A program made the translations under genes and the position numbers. Below the pieces are notes generated by a model. The model did no database searches, was not told where the DNA came from, and worked only from the letters and a program-made list of their open reading frames with translations. Positions 2,117 to 19,385 of a DNA stretch of 26,710 nt are shown here, piece after piece; positions within the stretch are counted from its first letter, which is position 1; the number at the start of each line of letters is the position of its first letter. Source of the stretch: Verrucomicrobiota bacterium (lineage in GTDB: Bacteria > Chlamydiota > Chlamydiia > Chlamydiales > FEN-1388); assembly GCA_018239705.1 (NCBI GenBank), contig JAFEGS010000001.1:1-26710 (forward strand). The letters run 5' to 3'.

Positions 2117-2638
2117 ATGGAGAGACCAGGTCAAAGTATATCAAAGAGTGGGCAAACACCCTCACAGTTTGCAGCAGCAAATAGCCTTGGCTTACCGGCA
2201 AGCGATGCTATTACAAAGGCAATGAACCCTCTCGTGGCCGACGCATTTGCACTCTATGTGAAGACAAAAAATTACCATTGGCATGTGTCTGGGCCATCTT
2301 TTCGCGATTATCATCTCTTATTTGATGAGCAGGCAGAGCAAATTTTTGCCATGATTGACCCTCTTGCAGAACGTGTTCGCAAGCTTGGTGGAACGACAAT
2401 CCGATCGGTGGGCGAAATCCAAAAGCAAACAGCTGTAGCCGATGATAATGATGCATCAGTTGAGCCGCGAGAGATGATAGGGCGCCTCCTGGAGGATAAT
2501 AGACGTTTTGCCGATGCACTTCGCAAGGCACATGATGTCTGCGAGAAGTACAAAGATGTAGCTTCTACCAGTGTCCTGGAAATTTTTCTGGATGAAACAG
2601 AGCGTCGTATCTGGTTCCTAAATAGTGTCATTGTTTAA
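2117..2638 (+). CDS. dps: Dps family DNA starvation/stationary-phase protection protein (ferritin-like)
   Basis: KTKNYHWHVSGPSFRDYHLLFDEQ...IDPLAERVRKLGG signature; RBS-like GGAGAG upstream. Confidence 0.93.
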   Translation: MERPGQSISKSGQTPSQFAAANSLGLPASDAITKAMNPLVADAFALYVKTKNYHWHVSGPSFRDYHLLFDEQAEQIFAMIDPLAERVRKLGGTTIRSVGEIQKQTAVADDNDASVEPREMIGRLLEDNRRFADALRKAHDVCEKYKDVASTSVLEIFLDETERRIWFLNSVIV

Positions 2639-4897
2639 TTTCTTGAAGAATTCCTCGTGATTTCGTTTTGGGAACTCGATACCATACTGCAGGCTTCTCT
2701 GATAGGCTTCCAGTGTCTTTTGAATCACAAACTGTTCATAGCTGCATAGGTCTGCCTGTCTTGTGGCTCTATCGACGATAAAATCTACAATCAGGCAGTT
2801 AAGGGGCTCACTAGCTTGAAGAGAAAAACATTGGCATGGAAGCGTTTTGAAATGGTCGAGAAGATGATTAGAAGCCTCTCGCTGCTTGTCCCCCCCTCCC
2901 CATAGCGCATAAGAGAGTAGATGGAGCAGGACGGTGGTATGAGTATCTGGGTCCTGTACTCCGGAGGTGAACTTGGTCATAGCGACTTGAGTAGGTGCAG
3001 TAATAGAGCCACAGGCATAGAGGTTCGGATTCTCTTCAATTTTTCGTAGTTTGTCTGTAGCCATCTTGAGTATGGGAGAAGTTTCTTCCCACTTGGGTAT
3101 TGTAGCCGGGAATTGCTGCTCTATTTTGGCAAGCTGCACAATGCTTTTGGAATAGCACTGGATAAAGAGATTGTGGCAGCGGCTAGATTCACACACGTCA
3201 ATAAGCTCAAAAAGGGAGACGAGAGAGCTGAGGATGTCATTTCCGAATTGGCGCTGATAGGCACTATAGAGCTCTAAAAAAGAGGGTGTATTCTTACCTA
3301 CTGCATGTATATGGTCCATGTACTGTGCATTCTTACTCAGTGCGTACAGCGCCATATCGAGCTTAAGATACGAGCGGTTCTTTGAAAAATAGAACCATTC
3401 AGTAATCTCTCGTGTAAGGTATTGTATAATGCGGGTGAGGAGCAGGCTTTCGCTTAAACGTTCTATACTCTTTTTTCTATTGCCTTGTACAATAGCAAGC
3501 CATATCTCTTCATCTCTGTTGCACTGGGTAATTACTTGCAAACCAACTCGTGAGAGCAATGTCTCGAGGCTCTTGGTAATTTTGTGATTAAATTGTAGTA
3601 GCTGCTTGTCGTCTTCTACATAGAGTAGAAGTGCCTGTGAGACTGAATGAGCAGCACTGAAGAGGGCTTGGATTTTTTTTGAGGTGTTAATGCTATTGTG
3701 GGGAATAGAAAGAAAATCGCATGTATGCCTTATGGAGGCGATAGTTTTTTCATTTGCTGTGGATATATTGGCAAAAATGTGTGAGAGGTTGAATCGGATG
3801 TCCTGAATGAAGGCTGAAAGCCGAGCTGCGTAATTGAGCCCAGTACTTGTCTGCTGTGAATGCATGATTTGATAAAAGGCTGCTCGAATGTCTTCTAAAG
3901 CCTTTTCGATGATGGAGAGAGGTCCTTCGAAATAGGCACGAAAGAGATCTTCATTTTGTGTAATTTCTGCAAATTCCTTCCCTCGGTTTTCATATAGTCC
4001 TTGTAGGCAGTCCTGCACATCTTCATCGAGGATTTGAAGATCCATTGCCAGTTTTTTCATATAATTGATGAGTGGGGCGGTTAGCTCATTTCCCCAATTT
4101 ATTATAAAATATTCTGTAACGCTTGCGCCTGTTCCAGTGCGAAAGGCAAGATCCTCTCTCAGAGATGCATTGCTGTCCGTAGCTCGCTGTTTTCTCTTCG
4201 TAGTAATATCTGGAAGTGCATCCTGCCTTGTATAATTTCGTTCCTCTGTGCTTTTAATTTCATCCAATTTACTTATAACCAATTCATTATTGATATGTTC
4301 TTTGGCTAGTTTTTCCTCTTGATCGCACTGTTCCATTTGCTCATGAATGCGCTTTATATTCTCTTTCAGGTGAGGGTCTTCCAGAGTGTGGAGGAGCAGC
4401 TTTTGCTCTTTTAATGTAGCTTTAAAAGTGTCTGTTACACGTCCTTTTTTAGCCAGTTTATCATACTCTAAAACAGATACCTTATAGAGTATTACAGCCT
4501 GTGAATAGGCTGGACTATTAAGGAGTAGTGCGAGCTGTTCTACTTTGGTTTTTATCATTTGAAGTTTCAGGCTCAAGGGAAAAAGCTGCTGCATACTTGG
4601 GCAGAGAGCCTGCAGGGGCAAAAAGGGAAGCTGTTCATAGAGTTTGCACATGTCTAAGTTGCAAGTGGTTAAAGTCTCGATGGGTGCCGCAAGTTCAGTT
4701 TTCAGCTCCTCATGCCTTTCAAGTATTCTTTTGGATGGAGCTGCGAAGGAATAGATGCTTGCTGCAATTTCATTTATATTTTTTTCTACAGCTTCTATCA
4801 ACTGATTGATTTCGTTCAACTTATTGAAAAATATTTGTTCATCTGGTGTGTCTATATCTGTTTCATTTGTCAAAAAGTAGCGAGGAGTTATTTGCAT
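2618..4897 (-). CDS. Hypothetical large helical/coiled-coil protein (paralog 2 of tandem pair)
   Basis: 759-aa ORF alignable by eye to 4863..6590; no recognisable domain. Confidence 0.8.
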   Translation of the reverse strand: MQITPRYFLTNETDIDTPDEQIFFNKLNEINQLIEAVEKNINEIAASIYSFAAPSKRILERHEELKTELAAPIETLTTCNLDMCKLYEQLPFLPLQALCPSMQQLFPLSLKLQMIKTKVEQLALLLNSPAYSQAVILYKVSVLEYDKLAKKGRVTDTFKATLKEQKLLLHTLEDPHLKENIKRIHEQMEQCDQEEKLAKEHINNELVISKLDEIKSTEERNYTRQDALPDITTKRKQRATDSNASLREDLAFRTGTGASVTEYFIINWGNELTAPLINYMKKLAMDLQILDEDVQDCLQGLYENRGKEFAEITQNEDLFRAYFEGPLSIIEKALEDIRAAFYQIMHSQQTSTGLNYAARLSAFIQDIRFNLSHIFANISTANEKTIASIRHTCDFLSIPHNSINTSKKIQALFSAAHSVSQALLLYVEDDKQLLQFNHKITKSLETLLSRVGLQVITQCNRDEEIWLAIVQGNRKKSIERLSESLLLTRIIQYLTREITEWFYFSKNRSYLKLDMALYALSKNAQYMDHIHAVGKNTPSFLELYSAYQRQFGNDILSSLVSLFELIDVCESSRCHNLFIQCYSKSIVQLAKIEQQFPATIPKWEETSPILKMATDKLRKIEENPNLYACGSITAPTQVAMTKFTSGVQDPDTHTTVLLHLLSYALWGGGDKQREASNHLLDHFKTLPCQCFSLQASEPLNCLIVDFIVDRATRQADLCSYEQFVIQKTLEAYQRSLQYGIEFPKRNHEEFFKKLNNDTI

Positions 4898-6590
4898 GAT
4901 CTTCTCCCAAATTTAAATTTTCTATTAAGTGGTTAATTTGATCGCTGGTTTCTTCGTGGTTATGTGGATAAGATTGATATAGGGCAGTAAGGGCAGGATG
5001 TTTTTTCAACCGCTTGTCAAGAAGGCTCTGATAGTCTTTTGACTCCTTACTAACCTGAAGTACGTTGTTGAGCTTGCTATTTGATGGCTTGTTTGAAAAA
5101 TAGAGCCACTCTATTATCGATTTTTCGATATATTTGAAGATTTTTCGGGAATTGCCTTTGTTAAAACCGGTTTCTTCAAACATACTCAAGAGATCATCAG
5201 AGGATATTTTTTCAAGTATCTGATTGCCAATGCGAGCGATGACTATTTCAAGGCATGAGGCAACTTTAAAATTGAATTGCGACATGCTTAGGGTATTTTT
5301 TTTATATTTGAGAAGTGCTTGTGCAGTAGCCTGTGCAGCCTGTAGGAGCGCTTTTAGCTGCCTTGAGGAGTTCTTATTTGCTTCTACTTCGGAGAGTAAT
5401 GTGAAGGTATGATTGACCGCTCTGATGACCAGTTGATTCTTTCTGTCAATATTTGAGAAGAAATAACTGGTCATGTAGGAGGTCTCTTGATTGGCGGCCA
5501 GAAGGCGAGCTGCATAGTGGAGGCCTTTTTCGATTTCCCCGCTTTGTATTAAGGTGTAGAGTGATTTGCGGATTTTTATAATGGTACATCGGTTAAAAGC
5601 GAGAGCGGTTTCTAATGGTATTTTGAGCCGCTCTTCAGGATACTCCTCGTCTGGAAAGGCTGTCCAGTTGCCATGATAGAGCATCTGCAGGGTCGCAAGG
5701 CATGTTTGTTGAATGAGCTGTAGCTCTTTTGCCTCCTCTTCCAATTGGCTCACAAGTGTATTGGTAGAATAATTTGCATATTTTGTAAGAATGCTTATAT
5801 TTATGAAATATTGTGTGGGACATAAGGTGAGCTCGTTTTTGAGCGTTATTGCTTTTGCCTCTTGCTTACGCTCATTAATATCATTTTTTATCAAGCCCTG
5901 TAAACCAGCTTTTTTAGTCTTGGAGAGAGTCAATGAAGCGCATTGCTTATCAAGTATGTCGTCGAGAGTGCAGTCTTCGATGGGTATGTCGTTTCCACAG
6001 GCAGCGTGGTAAAATTGTGTAATTTCTTCATGTACAAGCCGTATGTGATACTGTAGTCGTTGATCTAGATTGTGTAGATCTTTTGACTGAAGCGCTACAT
6101 CTTGTTTTGTAGTATTCCAAATTTTAATTAAGTTCTCTTTGTTTGTGCAGCTCTCTTGGCACTGACGGATCGTCCTCCTATATGATACGATGGATCCTGC
6201 GTATACATCACTAGAGAGCAGGAGCATTAGGCGGGTGATTTTCTCTGTTGAGAGCTCTATTTGCAGCTGTATACTGTGGATTTTCGCCATGTGTTTATGT
6301 GCGATCTCAAGAGAGAAGGGAAGAGCGCTATAAAGATTAGTAATAATGCGCGAGCATTTTTCGAGGGTAGATGAGCTATTTTGCAGCTCCTGCAGCCACT
6401 CCTTGTGCGTTGCAAATACGCTCTTTTCCGGAGCTGAGTAGGAATAGATCATCCCCCCGATTATGCCTTGCGTCTCCTTTACAGACTGCAGCTCCTTCTC
6501 AATTTCCAATAGCTGTGCTGCAAATTCGCTCTCTTCAGGCGGTGCGATATCATCTGTGGAGACAAAGTGGTAACGTGTACAGGGGTGCAT
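4863..6590 (-). CDS. Hypothetical large helical/coiled-coil protein (paralog 1 of tandem pair)
   Basis: 575-aa ORF; its start overlaps the LOG stop (TAATG); shares blocks with 2618..4897. Confidence 0.8.
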   Translation of the reverse strand: MHPCTRYHFVSTDDIAPPEESEFAAQLLEIEKELQSVKETQGIIGGMIYSYSAPEKSVFATHKEWLQELQNSSSTLEKCSRIITNLYSALPFSLEIAHKHMAKIHSIQLQIELSTEKITRLMLLLSSDVYAGSIVSYRRTIRQCQESCTNKENLIKIWNTTKQDVALQSKDLHNLDQRLQYHIRLVHEEITQFYHAACGNDIPIEDCTLDDILDKQCASLTLSKTKKAGLQGLIKNDINERKQEAKAITLKNELTLCPTQYFINISILTKYANYSTNTLVSQLEEEAKELQLIQQTCLATLQMLYHGNWTAFPDEEYPEERLKIPLETALAFNRCTIIKIRKSLYTLIQSGEIEKGLHYAARLLAANQETSYMTSYFFSNIDRKNQLVIRAVNHTFTLLSEVEANKNSSRQLKALLQAAQATAQALLKYKKNTLSMSQFNFKVASCLEIVIARIGNQILEKISSDDLLSMFEETGFNKGNSRKIFKYIEKSIIEWLYFSNKPSNSKLNNVLQVSKESKDYQSLLDKRLKKHPALTALYQSYPHNHEETSDQINHLIENLNLGEDHANNSSLLFDK

Positions 6591-7285
6591 TATATTTGTT
6601 GATCCTTTAGTAGTTTAAATCGATCGTGGTATGCGCGCTCAAGTCCATCTGCTACTTCATCTAAATCATCTGTAAGGACAAAAAGATCTAAATCACTTTG
6701 GTCGATGCAAGGTTCTTCGAGCATTGTCTCCTTTAACCATTCCACTAACCCTTGCCAGTAGCGTATCCCAATCAGGTATATTGGTACAGGCTTGATCTTC
6801 TTGGTCTGGATCAGTGTAACAGCCTCAAACAGCTCGTCCAGGGTGCCGTACCCTCCGGGAAGGAAGACAAAGCCTTCTGCATATCGTACAAACATGACCT
6901 TCCGGACAAAAAAATAGCGGAAACGAAGCTTCAACTTAGAATCGATAAAGGTATTAGGCTCTGATTCAAAGGGCAGGTCGATGACAAGCCCGCAAGAGCG
7001 TCCTTGTGCCATTTGAGCACCTTTGTTGGCAGCTTCCATGATGCTGGATCCAGCTCCTGTAATAATGCTAAAGCCCTTTTTAGCTATTTTGTAGGAGATA
7101 TCAAGCCCAATTTTGTAGTACTCATTTGTTGCCGGGAGGCGGGCTGAGCCAAAAATGGAGATGGAAGGGCCGATCATCGATAGCGTTTCAAAGCCATCGA
7201 CAAATTCAGAAATAATTCGAAATAGCCTCCACGCGTCAGTGCCTGAGGGGGGAAGAAATTCATTTGGTTGATTTGTCTCTGTCAT
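6590..7285 (-). CDS. LOG family nucleotide phosphoribohydrolase (TIGR00730-like Rossmann fold)
   Basis: Motifs SIFGSAR, ITGAG..IMEAANKGA, FRYFFVRKVMF and PGGYGTLDELFE. Confidence 0.92.
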   Translation of the reverse strand: MTETNQPNEFLPPSGTDAWRLFRIISEFVDGFETLSMIGPSISIFGSARLPATNEYYKIGLDISYKIAKKGFSIITGAGSSIMEAANKGAQMAQGRSCGLVIDLPFESEPNTFIDSKLKLRFRYFFVRKVMFVRYAEGFVFLPGGYGTLDELFEAVTLIQTKKIKPVPIYLIGIRYWQGLVEWLKETMLEEPCIDQSDLDLFVLTDDLDEVADGLERAYHDRFKLLKDQQI

Positions 7286-7334
7286 GATGGGTAAATCCTT
7301 GATGTATATCTACTATCTTGTGATTATAGCTGTA

Positions 7335-8204
7335 ATGAACTACTACGTATCACCTTTAGCTACTCTTGAGAAACTGGTACTTTTCAGGCAGACCCTTTTT
7401 GGGCTGCCTTGGGTACTGCTCAGCGCTCTTTTGGCCTATTCCCAAGAGAGAACAGTACACCCGACTCTATCTACATGGTTGTACATTATTGGCGCATTTT
7501 GTGCTGCTCGATTTTCAGGAATGTGCCTCAATAGAATAATTGATAGGCATATTGATGCAAAAAATCCGCGTACCTGTCAGCGCGCTTTGCCGAGAGGGGA
7601 GGTATCTCTTCAGACATGCGCTCTCTTAACGGCATTTTTTATGGGGCTTTTCCTCTATTTTACCTATCTTTTAGGCCCACTCTGTTTTCAGCTTTCTTGG
7701 ATCATTGCGCCACTCCTCTGCCTCTATTCCTATACAAAACGCTTTACCTTGCTGTGCCACTTTGTGCTTGGGCTGATCCAGTTTTTTGGCCCTCTGTGTG
7801 CGTGGGTAGCGGTTACTGGTGAGCTCTCTCTTGCGCCGCTACTTTTAGGCTTTGCCCTTTTTTGCGCAATGGCGGCAGGAGATATTATTTATGCCTGCCA
7901 GGATGTGGAGTTTGATAGGAAGACGAAGCTCTATAGCGTTCCCGCAAAGGTTGGAAGGTTTCGAGCCATTGCACTTGCCAAGGTGTTGCATACAGCTGCT
8001 GTGGCGAGCCTCTTTGTGTGCGGATATGTTCTTCATCTTAGCGCCCTCTTTTATCTTAGCGTAGCTCTTGTGGGCGGGCTCTATGTCTACTCATACAGAA
8101 AAGTAAATGATTTTGATAGCCGTTTTGCCTTTACTAATAACGTCTCGGGCATAACGCTCTTGCTTTGTACCTTTGGAGAGTATGTGTGGCGCGTATTGTT
8201 GTAG
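7335..8204 (+). CDS. ubiA: UbiA-family prenyltransferase (MqnP-like, menaquinone pathway)
   Basis: NRIIDRHIDAKNPRT.QRALP and DIIYACQDVEFD motifs; multiple transmembrane stretches. Start moved to ATG 7335 because the track start at 7284 overlaps the divergent LOG start. Confidence 0.92.
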   Translation: MNYYVSPLATLEKLVLFRQTLFGLPWVLLSALLAYSQERTVHPTLSTWLYIIGAFCAARFSGMCLNRIIDRHIDAKNPRTCQRALPRGEVSLQTCALLTAFFMGLFLYFTYLLGPLCFQLSWIIAPLLCLYSYTKRFTLLCHFVLGLIQFFGPLCAWVAVTGELSLAPLLLGFALFCAMAAGDIIYACQDVEFDRKTKLYSVPAKVGRFRAIALAKVLHTAAVASLFVCGYVLHLSALFYLSVALVGGLYVYSYRKVNDFDSRFAFTNNVSGITLLLCTFGEYVWRVLL

Positions 8205-8776
8205 GAGTTTCCGGGGCCTCCGGAACAATTTTGGCACATCGCCTCATCCAGGCGCTTAGTACTCTCGGACACAACGTAGAGCTGATAATAAGCCGTGACG
8301 CCTCTCTTACTATCCTCAAAGAGATGGGGGAGGAGTTTGCAAGTCCTCAAAAGTTTGTCAAAAGCTTTTCAGAAGAGCTTCGAGCACGTATAAGGCTGCA
8401 CCATGCAGATGATTTTAGCGCTCCCATTGCAAGTGGATCGTATCGTTTTGATGCCTGTGTGATTGTGCCGTGCAGTATGGCCACGCTAGCGGCGATTAGT
8501 ACCGGCTTGGCAGATAACCTACTGAGACGGGCAGCTGATGTGGCTTTAAAAGAGAAAAGGCGACTCGTGCTTGTGCCAAGAGAGGCCCCTTTTAATGAGA
8601 TCCACCTCGAAAATATGCTGAAACTTTCCAGGATGGGAGCAGTGGTTTTCCCTCCAATACCGGCCTGGTATATGCTGCCCCAGTCTCTTGAGGAGATGGA
8701 GCAGTTTATGATCAGCCGACTGCTTGACCAGTTGGGGATAGTGGCCGATATCATGCCTCGGTGGGGGGAAAGCTGA
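8186..8776 (+). CDS. ubiX: UbiX/Pad1 flavin prenyltransferase
   Basis: Motifs IVVGVSGASG, APIASGS, PCSMATLA, RAADVALKEKRRLVLVPREAP and IHLENML. GTG at 8186 is preceded by GGAGA. Confidence 0.95.
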   Translation: MARIVVGVSGASGTILAHRLIQALSTLGHNVELIISRDASLTILKEMGEEFASPQKFVKSFSEELRARIRLHHADDFSAPIASGSYRFDACVIVPCSMATLAAISTGLADNLLRRAADVALKEKRRLVLVPREAPFNEIHLENMLKLSRMGAVVFPPIPAWYMLPQSLEEMEQFMISRLLDQLGIVADIMPRWGES

Positions 8777-8781
8777 TGTTT

Positions 8782-9324
8782 TTACATATTTTTGCGAAAA
8801 ATTGATAACTGCTTTCTTTCAACGGCTTTGTGTTTATTGTAAAAATCGATAGCATTCTTATTGTCTTTGGCAACAATAAAAGCAATTCTACAGCACTGAT
8901 TATCTCTGGCTCGCTCTTCAATTTTCTCGAATAGACGTGATCCGATTCCTTTTCGGCGATGCGCTTCTTCGATATATAAATCTTCTAGACAAAGTTCAGG
9001 CTGAGCCTCAAAGCCGCTAAATCCAATGTAATAGATAGCAAAGCCCGCGATCTTTTTCTCGATCTCAGCAAGTATGACTGAAGCCCTTGGTTTTTCTCCA
9101 AATAGGTGTGTGCGGAGGTTTTCGATTTTTATTGTAGAGGGGTCGCGACCGTGAAAAGCTTTAATCTTGCATAGAAGGTCATAGACACTTTGTACATCTT
9201 CAATTGTAGCCTCTCTCAAGACGGTGTTAAGTGGAGTAGAGTTATTTGACGATGAAGAAGAATCAGCAGAAACTAAAAGAGTAGATGTAATTTCTGATGA
9301 ATAGTAAGTTTTTGTTGGCTCCAT
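8782..9324 (-). CDS. GNAT acetyltransferase (diamine/SSAT-like) with a Ser-rich N-terminal extension
   Basis: IAGFAIY, LEDLYI...HRRKGIGSRL (acetyl-CoA motif A) and N..AIDFY.K. Confidence 0.88.
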   Translation of the reverse strand: MEPTKTYYSSEITSTLLVSADSSSSSNNSTPLNTVLREATIEDVQSVYDLLCKIKAFHGRDPSTIKIENLRTHLFGEKPRASVILAEIEKKIAGFAIYYIGFSGFEAQPELCLEDLYIEEAHRRKGIGSRLFEKIEERARDNQCCRIAFIVAKDNKNAIDFYNKHKAVERKQLSIFRKNM

Positions 9325-9457: not shown

Positions 9458-9775
9458 ATGTCGATTGTCAATCCCCTTTCATCAAACCCTTTACCCCCTG
9501 TTGATCCGGGTCAGGTTGTGCAGGTGCACGGCCAGGCAGGAGGAAAGCTTAAAACTGACGTCCACTCACCCTCGACGCAGTCGCAAGTCGTGCAGCAGTC
9601 AGCTGCAGTACTTCGTCCTGATGGAATTCTCGAATTCGAGCAAATTTTACCCGAAAAGACTGAAACCGATAAACATAAAGACGAAAAAGATGAAGATTCT
9701 GAGCAAAGGAAACAGAAGCGTCCATCTCAGCGCGCCCAATGGCGCCGCGCTCGTGACCAAGGCCAAAGAATCTAG
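9458..9775 (+). CDS. Small hypothetical protein (105 aa; gene A), S/P/Q-rich N-terminus and acidic-then-basic C-terminus
   Basis: Strong SD and -10 upstream. The 3' half is conserved at protein level in the diverged copy at 11251-11450, with mostly third-position changes, which supports real coding. Confidence 0.8.
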   Translation: MSIVNPLSSNPLPPVDPGQVVQVHGQAGGKLKTDVHSPSTQSQVVQQSAAVLRPDGILEFEQILPEKTETDKHKDEKDEDSEQRKQKRPSQRAQWRRARDQGQRI

Positions 9776-9798
9776 CTCATTGACGTAAATTTTTCTAA
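9599..9798 (+). repeat. Direct repeat A (200 bp), pairs with 11251..11450
   Basis: Ungapped manual alignment, 25 mismatches in 200 bp (about 87%). Confidence 0.95.
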
Positions 9799-9865
9799 AA
9801 TCGTTCAATTTATCCCTGTGATTTTTCTAAAATCCTGGACTTTATCCCTGTGATTTTTCTAAAAT
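9789..9865 (+). repeat. 32-bp-period tandem repeat upstream of the AAA_14 ATPase
   Basis: ATTTTTCTAAAAT at 9789, 9821 and 9853; TTTATCCCTGTG precedes the second and third copies. Confidence 0.9.
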
Positions 9866-9884
9866 TGTGAAAAAAGGGGGGATA

Positions 9885-11195
9885 ATGCGTAGAGATCACT
9901 TGAACTTTCTAAGGCAATGGAGAAATGACCCGATTAGGGTTCCTTTGATGATTCGCGGGGCGAGGCAGGTGGGTAAATCATGGCTCGTTACAGCCTTTGG
10001 GGAAGAGTTTGAACATTTTATATCAATCAATTTTGAAAAGGATAAGAGAGTCCACGCTCTATTTCCAGACCACATCGATATACATAAAACGCTTGAAACC
10101 TTGCGTGCCTATACCAAGATCCCTACTATTTCAGGAAAGACACTTCTTTTCTTAGATGAAATCCAAGAGTGCCCCAATGCGATACGGTACTTACGCTACT
10201 TCAAAGAGGAGCTTCCTGAACTTCATGTGATCGCTGCAGGATCGCTTTTGGAGTTTACATTAGAGAAATTGGGTGTTGCTGTAGGTAGGATCGATTATCT
10301 GTTTCTCTATCCTCTCTCTTTTATGGAATTTTTGACTGCTCTCAATCGAGATGATCTTCGAGAGGCCATTACAAACAAGAACATAGATGCTGCATCACAT
10401 GAGGTGCTTTTAGAGCATCTTAAAAACTATATGTGGCTTGGAGGAATGCCAGCGGTTGTTAGTACCTGGATCCAACATCGCGACTTTATCCTTTGTCAGC
10501 GTATCCAGGATCGCATTATTGGCAATTATGAGGATGATTTCCAAAAGTATGCCAAAAAACATCAGATCGAAACGTTAGGCAAGGTGTTTCGCTCGATTGG
10601 AAAGCAATTGGGAAAAAAATTTCAGTATATCAATGTTGACAATGACATGAAAACCTATCCCATCAAGCAGGGGCTCCATTTATTAATCAGAGCAGGTGTC
10701 GCTCATCTCTGTTACCATACCTCAGGGCATGTCTATCCTTTAGAGGCTGAAAGTAATGAGAAAAAGTTTAAAGTCTATCTCTTTGATATAGGTATTTCAC
10801 ATCGTCTCTTAGGATTAGATTTAGCCGAATGGGTCACCTCTCCGCTGCACATAGACTATTTAGGTGAAAGTGCTGAACAGCTCGTAGCCCAAGAGCTCAT
10901 TGCTTACGGCAACCCTTCAAAACGTGGTGAAATTTACTATTGGCACGTTGAGTCGAAATCAGGCAATGCAGAAGTAGATTTTATTGATGTTAAGGAAAAT
11001 AAGATTGTGCCAATTGAAGTGAAATCTGGAGTCAAAGGTGGGATGAAAAGCCTAAATGTATTTTTTGAAACGCATCCCAAGGCGACCTATGGCGTGAAAA
11101 TTTCTGAAATGCCATTTTCCCGTCATGGTAATTTGGAAGAAATTCCCTTGTATGCAGTAGCCAGTTGGAAAAAAAACCAAAGCTCAGGTTATTAA
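9885..11195 (+). CDS. ATP-binding protein, AAA_14 plus DUF4143-like C-terminal domain
   Basis: Walker A GARQVGKS, Walker B LFLDEIQ, IAAGSLL, YMWLGGMPAVV and C-terminal EVDF...IVPIEVKSG (PD-(D/E)XK-like). ATG 9885 preferred over the track start at 9867. Confidence 0.9.
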   Translation: MRRDHLNFLRQWRNDPIRVPLMIRGARQVGKSWLVTAFGEEFEHFISINFEKDKRVHALFPDHIDIHKTLETLRAYTKIPTISGKTLLFLDEIQECPNAIRYLRYFKEELPELHVIAAGSLLEFTLEKLGVAVGRIDYLFLYPLSFMEFLTALNRDDLREAITNKNIDAASHEVLLEHLKNYMWLGGMPAVVSTWIQHRDFILCQRIQDRIIGNYEDDFQKYAKKHQIETLGKVFRSIGKQLGKKFQYINVDNDMKTYPIKQGLHLLIRAGVAHLCYHTSGHVYPLEAESNEKKFKVYLFDIGISHRLLGLDLAEWVTSPLHIDYLGESAEQLVAQELIAYGNPSKRGEIYYWHVESKSGNAEVDFIDVKENKIVPIEVKSGVKGGMKSLNVFFETHPKATYGVKISEMPFSRHGNLEEIPLYAVASWKKNQSSGY

Positions 11196-11254
11196 GAAGC
11201 GCTCTATTGCCTTGAAGCAAGCATCAGGCTGTTCCACAAAAGGAAAATGGTCAG
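11184..11254 (-). pseudogene. Orphan 3' fragment (B') of an alpha/beta-hydrolase allele; repeat of 12018..12079
   Basis: Translates to HFPFVEQPDACFKAIERFLIT*, versus HFPFVEQPDACFKAIEGFLRIL* in 12006..12860; 58/62 nt identical over 11193-11254. Confidence 0.9.
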
Positions 11255-11450
11255 CTGCTCCACTTCGCCTTGATGGAATTCTCGAATTTGAGCAAATTCT
11301 CCCAGAAAAGACTGAGCCTGAAAAACACGACGAAGAAAAAGACGAAGATTCTGAGCAAAAGAAACAAAAGCGTCCATCGCAGCGCGCCCAATGGCGCCGC
11401 GCTCGCGACCAAGGTCAAAGAATATAGCTCATTGACGCAAATTTTTCTAA
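11251..11450 (+). pseudogene. 5'-truncated copy (A') of the 105-aa gene A
   Basis: Encodes SAAPLRLDGILEFEQILPEKTE...RAQWRRARDQGQRI*; lacks the N-terminal half, promoter and SD. Confidence 0.9.
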
Positions 11451-11483
11451 TTTGGTAGACTGGCCTGTATCAAGGGCTAAGAT

Positions 11484-11777
11484 ATGATATTTCCCCAGAC
11501 GCTTATTTTTCGTGTCCACGCGATCAAACGAATGCTCGAAAGGGATATAGCGGTTGAGGACGTAAAACAAGTATTGCTTGATCCCAAAATACTAAAAGAA
11601 TATGTTGACGACAGGCCCTACCCAAGCTATTTGGTACTGGGTTGGAAGGATCGCCGTCCTATCCACCTAGTTGTTGCTCTAAATAACGAAGCGAATGAGA
11701 CTATAATTGTTACGGCATACGAACCTTCTATCGTAGAATGGAATGAAGGTTTTAACACAAGAAAGGCAAAAGAATGA
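11484..11777 (+). CDS. DUF4258-like putative toxin of a type II TA pair
   Basis: IFRVHAIKRMLERDI...EY.DDRPYPSYLVLG...IHLVVA...IVTAYEP pattern; ATGA overlap with the next gene. Confidence 0.85.
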   Translation: MIFPQTLIFRVHAIKRMLERDIAVEDVKQVLLDPKILKEYVDDRPYPSYLVLGWKDRRPIHLVVALNNEANETIIVTAYEPSIVEWNEGFNTRKAKE

Positions 11778-12001
11778 AATGTGTTATTTGTAAAGATGGC
11801 AATACTGAAAAAGGCTTCACAAGTGTTACGCTAGAGCGTAATGGCATGTTATTTGTGGTAAAACAGGTGCCTGCCCACATCTGCACAAATTGTGGAGAGG
11901 CCTATATTGATGAAAAAATCACTTCAGCGATCCTAGAAATGGCTCAGAGAGCCTTTTTTGGTGGAGTCCAACTTGAAATTTGCTCATATAAAGCTGCATA
12001 A
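11774..12001 (+). CDS. YgiT-type (MqsA N-domain-like) zinc-finger protein, putative antitoxin
   Basis: MKCVICKDG...VKQVPAHICTNCGEAY (two CxxC motifs); 75 aa, no HTH. Confidence 0.88.
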   Translation: MKCVICKDGNTEKGFTSVTLERNGMLFVVKQVPAHICTNCGEAYIDEKITSAILEMAQRAFFGGVQLEICSYKAA

Positions 12002-12005
12002 CTCG

Positions 12006-12860
12006 CTAGAGAATGCGTAAGAAGCCCTCTATTGCCTTGAAGCAAGCATCGGGCTGCTCCACAAAAGGAAAATGGCCAGACTGCTCTATTTTGACAAGAG
12101 TGGAGGAGGGTATCACCGTATGGAGATATTCAACAGAGGCAAGGGGAATGGGGTCTACATCTCCATGGATGATCATCGTAGGACATCGTAAAGCCCGTAG
12201 GCTGTCCGTTACATCATAGGGATTCATAAAAATGGCTTCTTTAAAAATATCCCATACCTTAAAGCCTCTCAGAGCCTCCTGTTGAGACTTCCAAAGATTG
12301 AGCTTATGGACGTTGTCAGGGCTGTGCATGTAGATCTGGTAGACAATGGTAAGCCATTTTTTCACAAGCTCTGGATCGCCCGCTCGATAGAGCTCAGAGG
12401 CTTCGATTTTTTGCAGCTCTTCTTGATAAGGGGTAAGTCTTTTTGCAAGCTCGGAAAAAAAGAGGGGCAAATCATCAGATTTTCCCGGCATAGGTGAGAG
12501 TAAGACCAGCTTGTCAACCGCTTCAGGATAGACACAGGCATAGTGGAAGGCTAAAAAGGCGCCCCAAGAATGGCCAAGCAAAGAAATTTTTTCTAGCCCA
12601 AGAGATGTGCGGATCGCTTCGATATCCTGAAGATAGGTTGAGAGAGTAATCTCTTCAGGGGTGATCTCTCCGGTCGATTTGCCAAGAGCTCTTTGGTCGT
12701 AGAATATGAGCTGGTTATTTTGAGCTAGGCGCTCCATGTGTGGAAGTAAGTACTCATGGGTGATAAAACCGGCTCCTCCATGTACCACAATAAGAGGATC
12801 GCCCTTGCCCATAATGCTACAAAAAAGATCGGCTCCTTTTGCCTTTACAAATGTGTGCAT
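12006..12860 (-). CDS. Alpha/beta hydrolase (proline iminopeptidase-like; gene B)
   Basis: HGGAG oxyanion motif, YDQRALGKS, GHSWG nucleophile, HGDVD acid and SGHFP His. Confidence 0.9.
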   Translation of the reverse strand: MHTFVKAKGADLFCSIMGKGDPLIVVHGGAGFITHEYLLPHMERLAQNNQLIFYDQRALGKSTGEITPEEITLSTYLQDIEAIRTSLGLEKISLLGHSWGAFLAFHYACVYPEAVDKLVLLSPMPGKSDDLPLFFSELAKRLTPYQEELQKIEASELYRAGDPELVKKWLTIVYQIYMHSPDNVHKLNLWKSQQEALRGFKVWDIFKEAIFMNPYDVTDSLRALRCPTMIIHGDVDPIPLASVEYLHTVIPSSTLVKIEQSGHFPFVEQPDACFKAIEGFLRIL

Positions 12861-17163: not shown

Positions 17164-17448
17164 ATGCGCTGCACGTTTGTATGCAACATAGTCATCAAAG
17201 TCGAGAGTGTGGTGCATGTCTATCAAGGCAAAACACGAGGGACCATTGTTTCACCCAGGGGAGACTGTTTTGGTTTTGGCAAGTACTTTTTGCTTGATGG
17301 GACAGACAAGACGCTCGGTGAATACATGGATCCAGAGTATAACGCTCGATCGCTTGCTATTCGAAATTTCAAAGAAAAGAAGCCATTTACCACACTGCCT
17401 ATGTTAGCAGTGTGGAATGGTGCGTTTCAGCGGAAGGATTTTGTTTAA
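17164..17448 (+). CDS. Doubtful short ORF or decayed gene remnant
   Basis: 94-aa ORF filling the gap; no SD and no recognisable motif. Confidence 0.25.
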   Translation: MRCTFVCNIVIKVESVVHVYQGKTRGTIVSPRGDCFGFGKYFLLDGTDKTLGEYMDPEYNARSLAIRNFKEKKPFTTLPMLAVWNGAFQRKDFV

Positions 17449-17510: not shown

Positions 17511-18968
17511 TTAACAAAATAAATCCTCCAGCACTAGTTCATTATGAATAAGCTCGGTTGAATATTCGTTTTTTTGCAGGCCAAAAGGCGTAATGAACGT
17601 TATAAAGATGGTTTTTGTGGTTTTGGTCACTTCCCGAAAAACTCTAATCTTTGCTTCTATTTCTTTTGCATAGCTCTTTGTAATAGCAAACAAACTATTA
17701 CAAAATTTTATCTCGAATATATTAATGCAATCATCTTTTCTATCAAGAAGTAAATCTATTTGCACACCAATTTCTGATTTATCCTTAGGTTTATAGGCCC
17801 ATTGAGATTCCGTTGTAAGTAATGCAGAAATTCCTAGTGCTTTTTTAATCTGTGGGATATGTTTGAAACAGAGGCTTTCAAAAGCGTATCCAGCCCATGT
17901 TTTCCAGCGTGGTTCGCTTTGCATCTTTAACCAGTACTCGCTGTCATGTCCCATGAGTACACCAGATTTTACTTCTTCAATCCATGAGAGATAAAAATAA
18001 GAATATTCATCCACCAGCCACAGGCGCTTGTTCTTTGCCTTCTTCTGAAATTCAGGATTTATAGCAATAAATCCAGACTCTTCAAGTTCTTCTAATATGG
18101 CTGTAGATTGCCCGCCAGTTGGCATATTGAGCTTTTCATAGAGCTCAAGTTTTGAAACCCCTCCCTTCTTTGCTGCGAGAGCTCTCACGATTTCTATATG
18201 TTTTGAGGGGGAGTCGAATAGAGAGTAATATAAATTAGTAAACTCAGGGACCAAGGGGCCTTGCGAAATAAAACAGAGTCGATTAATGCTTTGGGCTGCC
18301 GATTCTCCAGGGTGCACGTAGGTTAAATACTTAGCAACTCCTCCAAAACACATATAAAGCTCTGCAACCAGCTTATGAGAAAGGGTAACTCCTTGTGATT
18401 GGAGAAATTTCATTGATTCGTCTAGTGTGAATGCATTGAGCTTTATAACTTCTGTTAATCTCCCATATAGGCCACCTTTATTATTGATGATCTTCTTAAT
18501 AATCCAATTTGCGGCAGATCCGCAAACAATTAAAATAACATTGCGAGCTTGAGATAGGTACTGATTCCAAAAATATTCTAACGCTTCTAGAAAGCCTGAA
18601 CATTTTGAAGCAAGCCAGGGAAGTTCATCAAAGAATAAAATTACTTTCTTTGATGGATCGATTTTGCCTACTGCTTCCTGCAGCGTAAAGAGTGCATCGT
18701 CCCAGCTTGTGGGCGGTTTTTCAGTATGAGATATTTCAAATTTTTGCTTTAGCACACGATAAAATTTCTGAATTTGAGAGCGCTTTGTGCCATTTCTTGT
18801 GCCAGTAAAAGAGAAAAAGGTTCCCTTGTCTTTAAAGAACTCTTGAATAAGGTAGGTCTTGCCTACTCGACGCCTGCCATAAATAGCCAGAAATTCGGGA
18901 TTTTCAGACCTAAGGAGTCTCTGAAGCTTTTCTATCTCCCGTTCTCTTCCAAATATTCGAGCTACCAT
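17511..18968 (-). CDS. ATP-binding protein: archaeal-type ATPase, winged helix and C-terminal PD-(D/E)XK-like (DUF234-like) domain
   Basis: IFGREREI, Walker A GRRRVGKT, Walker B LFFDELPW, CGS; central IVRALA...LYEKL...AILEELEESGFI (wHTH-like); GYAFE..C and QIDLLLD...IFEIKF. Confidence 0.9.
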   Translation of the reverse strand: MVARIFGREREIEKLQRLLRSENPEFLAIYGRRRVGKTYLIQEFFKDKGTFFSFTGTRNGTKRSQIQKFYRVLKQKFEISHTEKPPTSWDDALFTLQEAVGKIDPSKKVILFFDELPWLASKCSGFLEALEYFWNQYLSQARNVILIVCGSAANWIIKKIINNKGGLYGRLTEVIKLNAFTLDESMKFLQSQGVTLSHKLVAELYMCFGGVAKYLTYVHPGESAAQSINRLCFISQGPLVPEFTNLYYSLFDSPSKHIEIVRALAAKKGGVSKLELYEKLNMPTGGQSTAILEELEESGFIAINPEFQKKAKNKRLWLVDEYSYFYLSWIEEVKSGVLMGHDSEYWLKMQSEPRWKTWAGYAFESLCFKHIPQIKKALGISALLTTESQWAYKPKDKSEIGVQIDLLLDRKDDCINIFEIKFCNSLFAITKSYAKEIEAKIRVFREVTKTTKTIFITFITPFGLQKNEYSTELIHNELVLEDLFC

Positions 18969-18986: not shown

Positions 18987-19084
18987 GAGTTTTAGCCAAA
19001 TCTCATAAAATAAGACACATTCGGCTAAAACTCTTAAGACTTTCAGCCGAATCTTCCATTTTAACCGAGATTCGGCTAAATCTC
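18987..19084. repeat. Array R1: two 15-17-15 inverted-repeat units with a 51-bp period, 19 nt upstream of the ATPase start
   Basis: Half-site consensus GAGTTTTAGCCGAAT: forward at 18987 and 19038, reverse at 19019 and 19070. Confidence 0.9.
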
Positions 19085-19308: not shown

Positions 19309-19385
19309 GAGTTTTAGCCGAATCTCATAAAACAAGACACATTCGGCTAAAACTCTCATGAGTTTCAGCCGAATCTACAATTTTA
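19309..19385. repeat. Array R2: direct copy of 18987..19063
   Basis: 70/77 nt identical by manual alignment; perfect 15-bp inverted repeat at 19309-19323 and 19341-19355, third half-site at 19360. Confidence 0.92.

Follow-up and report, generated by a model that had tools for sequence, protein, structure and literature searches.

Organization of the locus

The DNA analyzed here, referred to as the window, is the entire longest contig (C111, JAFEGS010000001.1, 26,710 nt) of a metagenome-assembled genome (MAG) deposited as Verrucomicrobiota bacterium (assembly GCA_018239705.1) and placed by GTDB in the order Chlamydiales. Within it we studied the interval between positions 9458 and 12860, where an ATPase gene and a toxin-antitoxin pair are found as two separate cargos between a small gene, here called A, and a hydrolase gene, here called B, and where truncated copies of both flanking genes (stubs B' and A') lie back to back between the cargos. 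The order of the elements is gene A, an array of 32-nt repeats, the ATPase gene, the B' stub, the A' stub, a DUF4258 gene, a YgiT gene and the intact hydrolase B. An original prediction, made by inspection of the letters, had read this arrangement as two alleles of one cargo slot fused in tandem; every element that it listed was recovered at its expected place by repeat search, blastn and Pfam (Table 1).

Table 1. Features of the A-B interval, in coordinates of the window.
Feature	Position	Strand	Remarks
Gene A	9458..9775	+	105 aa, strong Shine-Dalgarno site, lineage-specific
Conserved non-coding tail of A	9776..9798	+	final 10 nt begin the first unit of the leader
Repeat leader of the ATPase, 32-nt period	9789..9873	+	two full units and a partial unit running into the Shine-Dalgarno site
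Cargo 1, AAA_14 and DUF4143 ATPase, intact	9885..11195	+	alternative GTG start at 9867
B' stub	11193..11254	-	last 20 conserved codons of a putative diverged hydrolase B allele
Novel joint	11250..11258		GTCAGCTGC; from register alignments
A' stub	11250..11450	+	3' 58 codons, stop codon and tail of a putative diverged A allele
Promoter-like site before the toxin-antitoxin pair	11432..11461	+	consensus match only
Cargo 2a, DUF4258 putative toxin	11484..11777	+	Pfam E 1e-22
Cargo 2b, YgiT-type zinc-finger antitoxin	11774..12001	+	TIGR03831 E 9e-14, above cut-off
Hydrolase B, intact, alpha/beta hydrolase of the proline-iminopeptidase family	12006..12860	-	Pfam and NCBIfam

Two direct repeats define the stubs. 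The longer one is ungapped and spans 201 nt (9598-9798 and 11250-11450, 88% identity, 176/201), and the shorter one spans 62 nt (11193-11254 and 12018-12079, 94% identity, 58/62). The ungapped copy of A had thus been recognized correctly, although its length and count had been given as 175/200; the value of 58/62 announced for B' was reproduced exactly. Comparison by blastn with the whole 2.4-Mb MAG returned both repeats (E values of 4e-66 and 2e-20) and no further copy of either. It had also been claimed that the end of the B' frame overlaps that of the ATPase, as is indeed the case: the frame continues into a virtual tail I-T-stop and terminates at a TGA (11184-11186) that falls 12 nt within the 3' end of the ATPase open reading frame (ORF), whose own stop codon lies at 11193-11195. 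Hydrolase B is the last gene of an operon that also holds a beta-lactamase-fold gene. A Pfam scan of all ORFs of at least 90 aa in the window detected no recombinase or transposase domain, in line with the view that the two cargos were stacked without an integrase.

The joint between the two stubs

Homology-facilitated illegitimate recombination (HFIR) is an experimentally documented, RecA-dependent process that leaves joints of 3-10 bp (PMC6382021). At the junction of the two stubs, B' runs in register to GGTCAG and A' begins at TCAGCTGC. Gene A carries GTCAGCTGC at 9597-9605 and the intact B carries the near-match GCCAGACTGC at 12075-12084, so that the overlap of the two stubs comprises 5 nt that are certain and 9 nt that are possible. 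Because GTCAGCTGC is common to A and nearly common to B, and because gapped blastn stretches the match between B' and B to 11260/12086, the stubs are fused within a microhomology of 5-9 nt, as in illegitimate recombination. The locus has one single novel joint, and its microhomology falls in the size range of HFIR joints.

Exact matches between the copies reach at most 26 nt for A and A' and 24 nt for B' and B; with k above 26 the whole interval is free of repeats. A k-mer graph assembler should not be able to create a joint between sequences that share only 9 nt. These lengths argue against a mis-join in the assembly graph, but not against a chimeric molecule in the library.

Gene A, its truncated copy and selection

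No family of Pfam, NCBIfam or PADLOC was assigned to gene A. Its product is predicted to be disordered (predicted local distance difference test, pLDDT, of 0.30 for the Atlas model), its only relatives among 5.8 billion proteins are the copies of the window itself, and none was detected in metagenome contigs of JGI. Among 60 relatives a single genome encodes a homologue, 40% identical and in an unrelated context between a glycosyltransferase gene and an unknown gene, a result that speaks against A as a conserved core flank.

Over the 58 codons that A and A' share we counted 14 synonymous and 10 non-synonymous changes, with an intact frame in A', a synonymous divergence (dS) of 0.54, a non-synonymous divergence (dN) of 0.076 and a dN/dS ratio of 0.14. 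A stub that had been dead since its duplication would be expected to give a pairwise ratio of about 0.55 or more, and a neutrally decaying A' dating from a tandem duplication was rejected (p = 0.008). Since the differences are mostly synonymous and the neutral stub is rejected, A' would until recently have belonged to a functional gene in a diverged copy of the locus, rather than being an old decaying duplicate. The diverged and formerly functional source that HFIR calls for is thus indicated indirectly; an origin from a paralogue fits these values too. As A' lacks its own start codon with a Shine-Dalgarno site, it is unlikely to function at present. For B' and B the 20 comparable codons hold 2 synonymous and 2 non-synonymous changes, too few for a test of selection.

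The tail of A behaves differently from its synonymous sites, being far more conserved. From the stop codon to 9798 there is one difference in 26 nt between A and A', and at the synonymous p-distance of 0.385 the probability of one difference or fewer in such a stretch is 6e-5. Such a constraint is plausible. The tail holds the -35 element of the promoter-like site that precedes the toxin gene (TTGACG-18-TAGACT, with an extended TG), a type of site whose total number does not exceed that of shuffled controls.

Boundaries of the cargos and the 32-nt leader

According to the original prediction each cargo begins right after the same short sequence, which would mark the edge of an exchangeable slot. 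Both cargos do start directly after the common ATTTTTCTAA: the homology between A and A' stops at 9798/11450, immediately past it, and that between B' and B begins at 11193/12018. The role of slot boundary was not sustained, since ATTTTTCTAA is the first 10 nt of the first 32-nt unit in the leader of the ATPase cassette, and this leader accompanies the ATPase in 7 homologues. The unit reads TTTTTTCTAAAAT-N7-TTTATCCC, with 7 variable nt in the middle. Each of the 7 homologues closest to the ATPase (69-82% identity) is preceded by two or three such units and a partial one containing the ribosome-binding site. Four of these homologues come from the search of the order and belong to four families, and three come from named chlamydial MAGs (loci L016, L017, L018, L019, L034, L035 and L036). 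Gammaproteobacterial homologues (L038 and L039), which are more distant, have analogous arrays of different sequence. The leader in the window contains a promoter-like site (TGGACT-18-TAAAAT) and probably harbors the cassette's promoter or operator sites in tandem.

Chance does not account for ATTTTTCTAA at the point where the A' tail ends, because the frequency of this 10-mer in the genome is about 5e-6 per site. As the A' tail retains the first 10 nt of the cassette leader, the toxin-antitoxin allele most likely descends from an allele once occupied by the ATPase, the cassette of which was replaced. It is less likely that the cassette originally entered through microhomology at ATTTTTCTAA. 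A role of the leader motif as a recombination site used throughout the genome was rejected, given that the 32-nt unit and the A tail occur in the MAG only at this locus.

On the other side, homologues of hydrolase B end with a conserved FL followed by 1-5 variable residues. Both alleles keep the FL and then differ, one with RIL-stop and the other with IT-stop. Because the limit of the homology falls just past the conserved FL, the boundary at B looks as if it were set by selection on the B protein and not by a recombination site.

The two cargos

The ATPase matches AAA_14 and DUF4143 in Pfam (E values of 2e-30 and 3e-24) and the PADLOC candidate PDC-S01 with an E value of 1e-131 over profile positions 3-435 of 439, which makes it a member of that group. 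The antiviral function of most PDCs has not been validated, and DUF4143 proteins have been described as fusions of an ATPase with a PD-(D/E)XK domain (PMC12988326). Of the 201 genomes in the order, 77 carry PDC-S01 genes, and one genome may have as many as 8 copies. Genomes from the same family have nothing but copies of about 40% identity, a sign that PDC-S01 spreads laterally. Its cassette is patchy across families, often lies at contig ends and always has its own leader. In genus g28 the leader and the gene are present in genome G104 (L116, G104:C27, 6087-7576) and missing from the syntenic site of genome G038 (L121, G038:C1, about 2626-3053); the difference between the two is an intergenic insertion of a single gene, with no extra genes and no flanking repeats. 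Duplications of the flanks were searched for at other PDC-S01 cassettes, and none was seen in five loci.

Among 200 other genomes of the order, 3 have the DUF4258 and YgiT genes together. The antitoxin (75 aa) consists of the N-terminal zinc-finger domain of MqsA only and has no helix-turn-helix (HTH) domain. Assignment to the MqsRA systems was considered and rejected: the toxin is a DUF4258 protein rather than MqsR, the antitoxin is devoid of the C-terminal HTH, and the MqsA models score below their cut-offs (29.6 against 30 for PF15731 and 27 against 61.8 for TIGR03830). Both cargos are accessory, as the ATPase is a PDC-S01 candidate and the toxin-antitoxin pair is rare in the order.

The source genome and relatives of the locus

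The MAG consists of 652 contigs with a total of 2.44 Mb and is 86% complete with 4.3% contamination. Its cysteine desulfurase, a housekeeping protein, has a best protein match of only 70% identity, with Chlamydiales and Parachlamydiaceae MAGs among the named relatives, and the nearest homologues of the ATPase likewise come from Parachlamydiales, Rhabdochlamydiaceae and Chlamydiae MAGs; on these grounds the host is an environmental chlamydia that branches deeply and has no close relatives in public data. The MAG carries genes for RecA and for a ComEC-family protein. About 12 kb of its 2.4 Mb are internally duplicated, the longest pairs being paralogous large repeat proteins and secreted proteins and not housekeeping genes, which speaks neither for nor against a co-binned sister lineage. 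Among them, the contig pairs C119/C572 and C66/C600 (G000), with 82-88% nucleotide identity, encode very large repeat-rich proteins and secreted ATP-grasp-like proteins; they represent families within the genome or possibly fragments of a second lineage.

Hydrolase B was present in 2 of 22 genomes of the family, and genomes of the same genus were not available for comparison of either flank. Its nearest protein homologues are 60-65% identical and not syntenic: when A and the GNAT, UbiX and beta-lactamase-fold proteins of the window were compared by tblastn with the contigs bearing B homologues, no match was obtained. A pattern scan of JGI contigs gave no relative of hydrolase B.

The surroundings of this gene were also looked at in other chlamydiae. 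A genome of the same family (G006) has two tandem paralogues of hydrolase B (L114, G006:C2:29000-43000, at 5085-8975) with about 77% nucleotide identity at their 3' ends, together with an ORF of 118 aa resembling the N-terminus of B and direct repeats of 154 nt and 44 nt around the second copy; the neighborhood of the hydrolase is thus prone to rearrangement in G006 too. Two Logan contigs (L011 and L014) differ in the space that follows the 3' end of the B homologue, with three small unknown genes in one and a BON-domain gene directly next to it in the other. Because of this difference, the 3' side of the hydrolase is variable in other chlamydiae as well.

Origin of the tandem arrangement

Taken together, the anatomy of the interval, the microhomology at the joint and the low dN/dS of A' support the proposal of two alleles of one locus standing head to tail at a single novel joint. 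The explanation that we favor, and to which we give somewhat better than even credence, is that the locus is a scar of the HFIR type, in which one-sided homologous recombination combined with illegitimate recombination stacked a diverged allele beside the resident one with no integrase involved. Two diverged versions of one locus would have existed at the start, one with the leader and ATPase between A and B and the other with the toxin-antitoxin pair in that place, the latter most likely derived, in an earlier step, from an allele whose ATPase cassette had been replaced. On one side, DNA of a related lineage would then have undergone homologous pairing, inside B or past it or else inside A or upstream of it, and its other end would have joined illegitimately at the 5-9 nt microhomology, linking the middle of A with a site in B that lies 62 nt short of the 3' end. 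Such an event would keep both cargos and leave B' and A' as back-to-back stubs. It could have gone in either direction, with an incoming ATPase allele anchored upstream of A or within its 5' part, or an incoming toxin-antitoxin allele anchored in B. In a variant of the same scheme the fragment would circularize at the microhomology and enter by a single crossover in the 62-nt end of B, giving the same product through a very short homology. The repeats, the microhomology joint, the signature of purifying selection in A', the lack of an integrase and the assignment of the leader to the cassette are observed; the origin of the partner DNA in another lineage, the side of the anchor and the physical correctness of the contig are inferred.

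Several points weigh against this explanation. The A-B neighborhood was found in no relative of the collections searched, and neither of the two parental alleles with a single cargo was seen. The joint is known from a single contig in a fragmented MAG, the site of the homologous crossover cannot be located, homologous recombination is inefficient at a divergence of 6-12% (PMC6382021), and HFIR has not been demonstrated in chlamydiae. Finally, paralogous tandem modules followed by a later microhomology deletion would fit the same data. In its full form this alternative proposes an old duplication of the whole module of A, cargo and B, with both copies under selection, a swap of the cargo in one of them, and a recent deletion at microhomology that took out the main part of the first B along with the 5' half of the second A. 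It accounts equally well for the low dN/dS of A' and for the joint, microhomology deletions are common, the same-family genome G006 shows tandem B paralogues, B fragments and short duplications, and the MAG has other pairs of paralogues at 82-88% identity. Nevertheless, we consider it unlikely, as it takes more steps, including the long retention of two small redundant genes up to a dS of about 0.5 before the swap and the deletion; B is distal in its operon, so that a duplicated B would have been without promoter and yet kept for long, and no second full A or B was found anywhere in the MAG. A simpler duplication, from the middle of A to the 3' end of B in one lineage by microhomology, with later divergence and replacement of one cargo, would yield exactly the topology observed. 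In that case A' would have been dead from the start, contrary to the synonymous excess (rejection at p = 0.008, as above) and to a frame still intact at a dS of 0.54, and the enclosed contents, which should be the same, have no similarity to each other; we regard it as highly unlikely.

The chance that the contig is a chimera of two co-occurring strains, produced by a chimeric library molecule or by template switching during amplification and kept by the assembler, appears to us a little smaller than that of the whole-module duplication. Template switching in vitro also prefers microhomology, and the fragmentation of the MAG and its 4.3% contamination would suit a chimera. On the other hand, with joint sides sharing at most 9 nt and a longest exact repeat of 26 nt a k-mer graph cannot have made the mis-join, a chimeric molecule would form a low-coverage branch competing with two true paths, and the limited internal duplication of the MAG (about 12 kb) is headed by paralogous large proteins, not by a second strain. 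The cassette itself could also be the agent of the rearrangement. A self-mobile or site-specific ATPase-nuclease cassette with an iteron-like leader, for which the A' tail TTTTTCTAATTT served as target and the flank duplication was a by-product, is suggested by its multiple copies (up to 8 per genome), its patchy distribution, its frequent position at contig ends and its constant leader, as well as by the ATPase-PD-(D/E)XK fusion reported for DUF4143 proteins (PMC12988326) and the 12-nt match of the A' tail to the leader-unit variant of L034 and L036. Neither terminal repeats nor a repeat unit downstream of the gene were found, the five other cassettes lack flank duplications, and here the duplicated flanks belong to the neighboring genes with the joint 200 nt away from the leader, all of which makes this the most improbable of the explanations considered. 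Only marginally better, in our opinion, are the chances of a related proposal, by which the PDC-S01 gene and its 32-nt iteron-like leader form a mobile unit that inserts at repeat-like sequences (TTTTTCTAA), the A-B interval being visited repeatedly and the stubs being by-products; if true, such a unit would give a very common uncharacterized defense candidate a mobility mechanism.

Comparison with known systems

The favored HFIR-type origin was compared with described cases of gene gain. As in HFIR of Acinetobacter, S. pneumoniae and P. stutzeri (PMC6382021), there would be one homologous anchor and one illegitimate joint of 3-10 bp, with foreign DNA gained without an integrase; the process is RecA-dependent there, and the MAG has both RecA and a ComEC-family gene. 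In Chlamydia trachomatis, a ComEC homologue is reported to be important for DNA uptake and lateral gene transfer (PMC6686042). In contrast, HFIR is known from laboratory transformation, whereas here it is deduced from a single scar found in nature, in a chlamydia that has not been cultured; the donor would moreover be a diverged allele of the same locus, so that both flanking genes leave stubs.

HFIR has also been proposed for the natural stacking of modules in Vibrio's type VI secretion system (T6SS) arrays (PMC5361080). The effector-immunity arrays of Vibrio cholerae and the orphan 3' ends of Rhs and contact-dependent inhibition (CDI) loci resemble the present locus in that an incoming module is set beside the resident one, gene ends are truncated and no integrase takes part. 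They differ in their anchor, which is the conserved 5' part of the effector gene, and in their modules, which are toxin-immunity pairs, while those of the window are a candidate-defense ATPase and a toxin-antitoxin pair, flanked by two unrelated genes in convergent orientation. The core defense hotspots cDHS1/2 of P. aeruginosa (PMC10250203), which conserved genes delimit, share the variable defense-type content, the fixed flanks, the lack of clear hallmarks of mobile elements and the suggested exchange through flanking homology; however, they are defined over thousands of strains and span 1-224 kb, as opposed to one genome, cargos of 1.4 kb and 0.6 kb and a flank, A, that is not a core gene. 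An integron or another site-specific cassette system was rejected, as there is no recombinase domain, the right ends have no common site and the supposed site on the left is the leader of the ATPase. Gain of genes by ordinary recombination without an integrase is already known in principle, and the locus would be a clean example of it and not a new mechanism.

A second ATPase region in the window

Another accessory ATPase gene is located at 17511-18968 on the minus strand and corresponds to PADLOC PDC-S27 (E 4e-178). An inverted-repeat array lies twice upstream of it, at 18987-19063 and 19309-19385 (77 nt, 91% identical, 322 nt apart), and the 220 nt between the two copies have no similarity to the PDC-S27 ATPase. 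The doubled array may be another scar of rearrangement. Close by, an ORF of 94 aa (17164-17448, plus strand) matches only the C-terminal part of the Ham1/ITPase family (positions 110-183 of 186), its N-terminal half being apparently missing, and an ORF of 385 aa without family assignment lies directly upstream; this may be a clipped gene beside the PDC-S27 cassette.

Implications

Defense-type genes turn over fast, and the movement of small cassettes without an integrase is rarely visible. A scar of the kind favored here would retain both parental alleles together with the joint, so that the route, one homologous side and one joint at microhomology, can be read directly from it, and this in an environmental chlamydia, a member of a group with few classical mobile elements. 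The locus also illustrates that an apparent motif at the boundary of a slot can be the remnant of a previous occupant. Beyond this interval, the widely distributed PDC-S01 ATPase moves as one gene accompanied by its phased 32-nt repeat leader.

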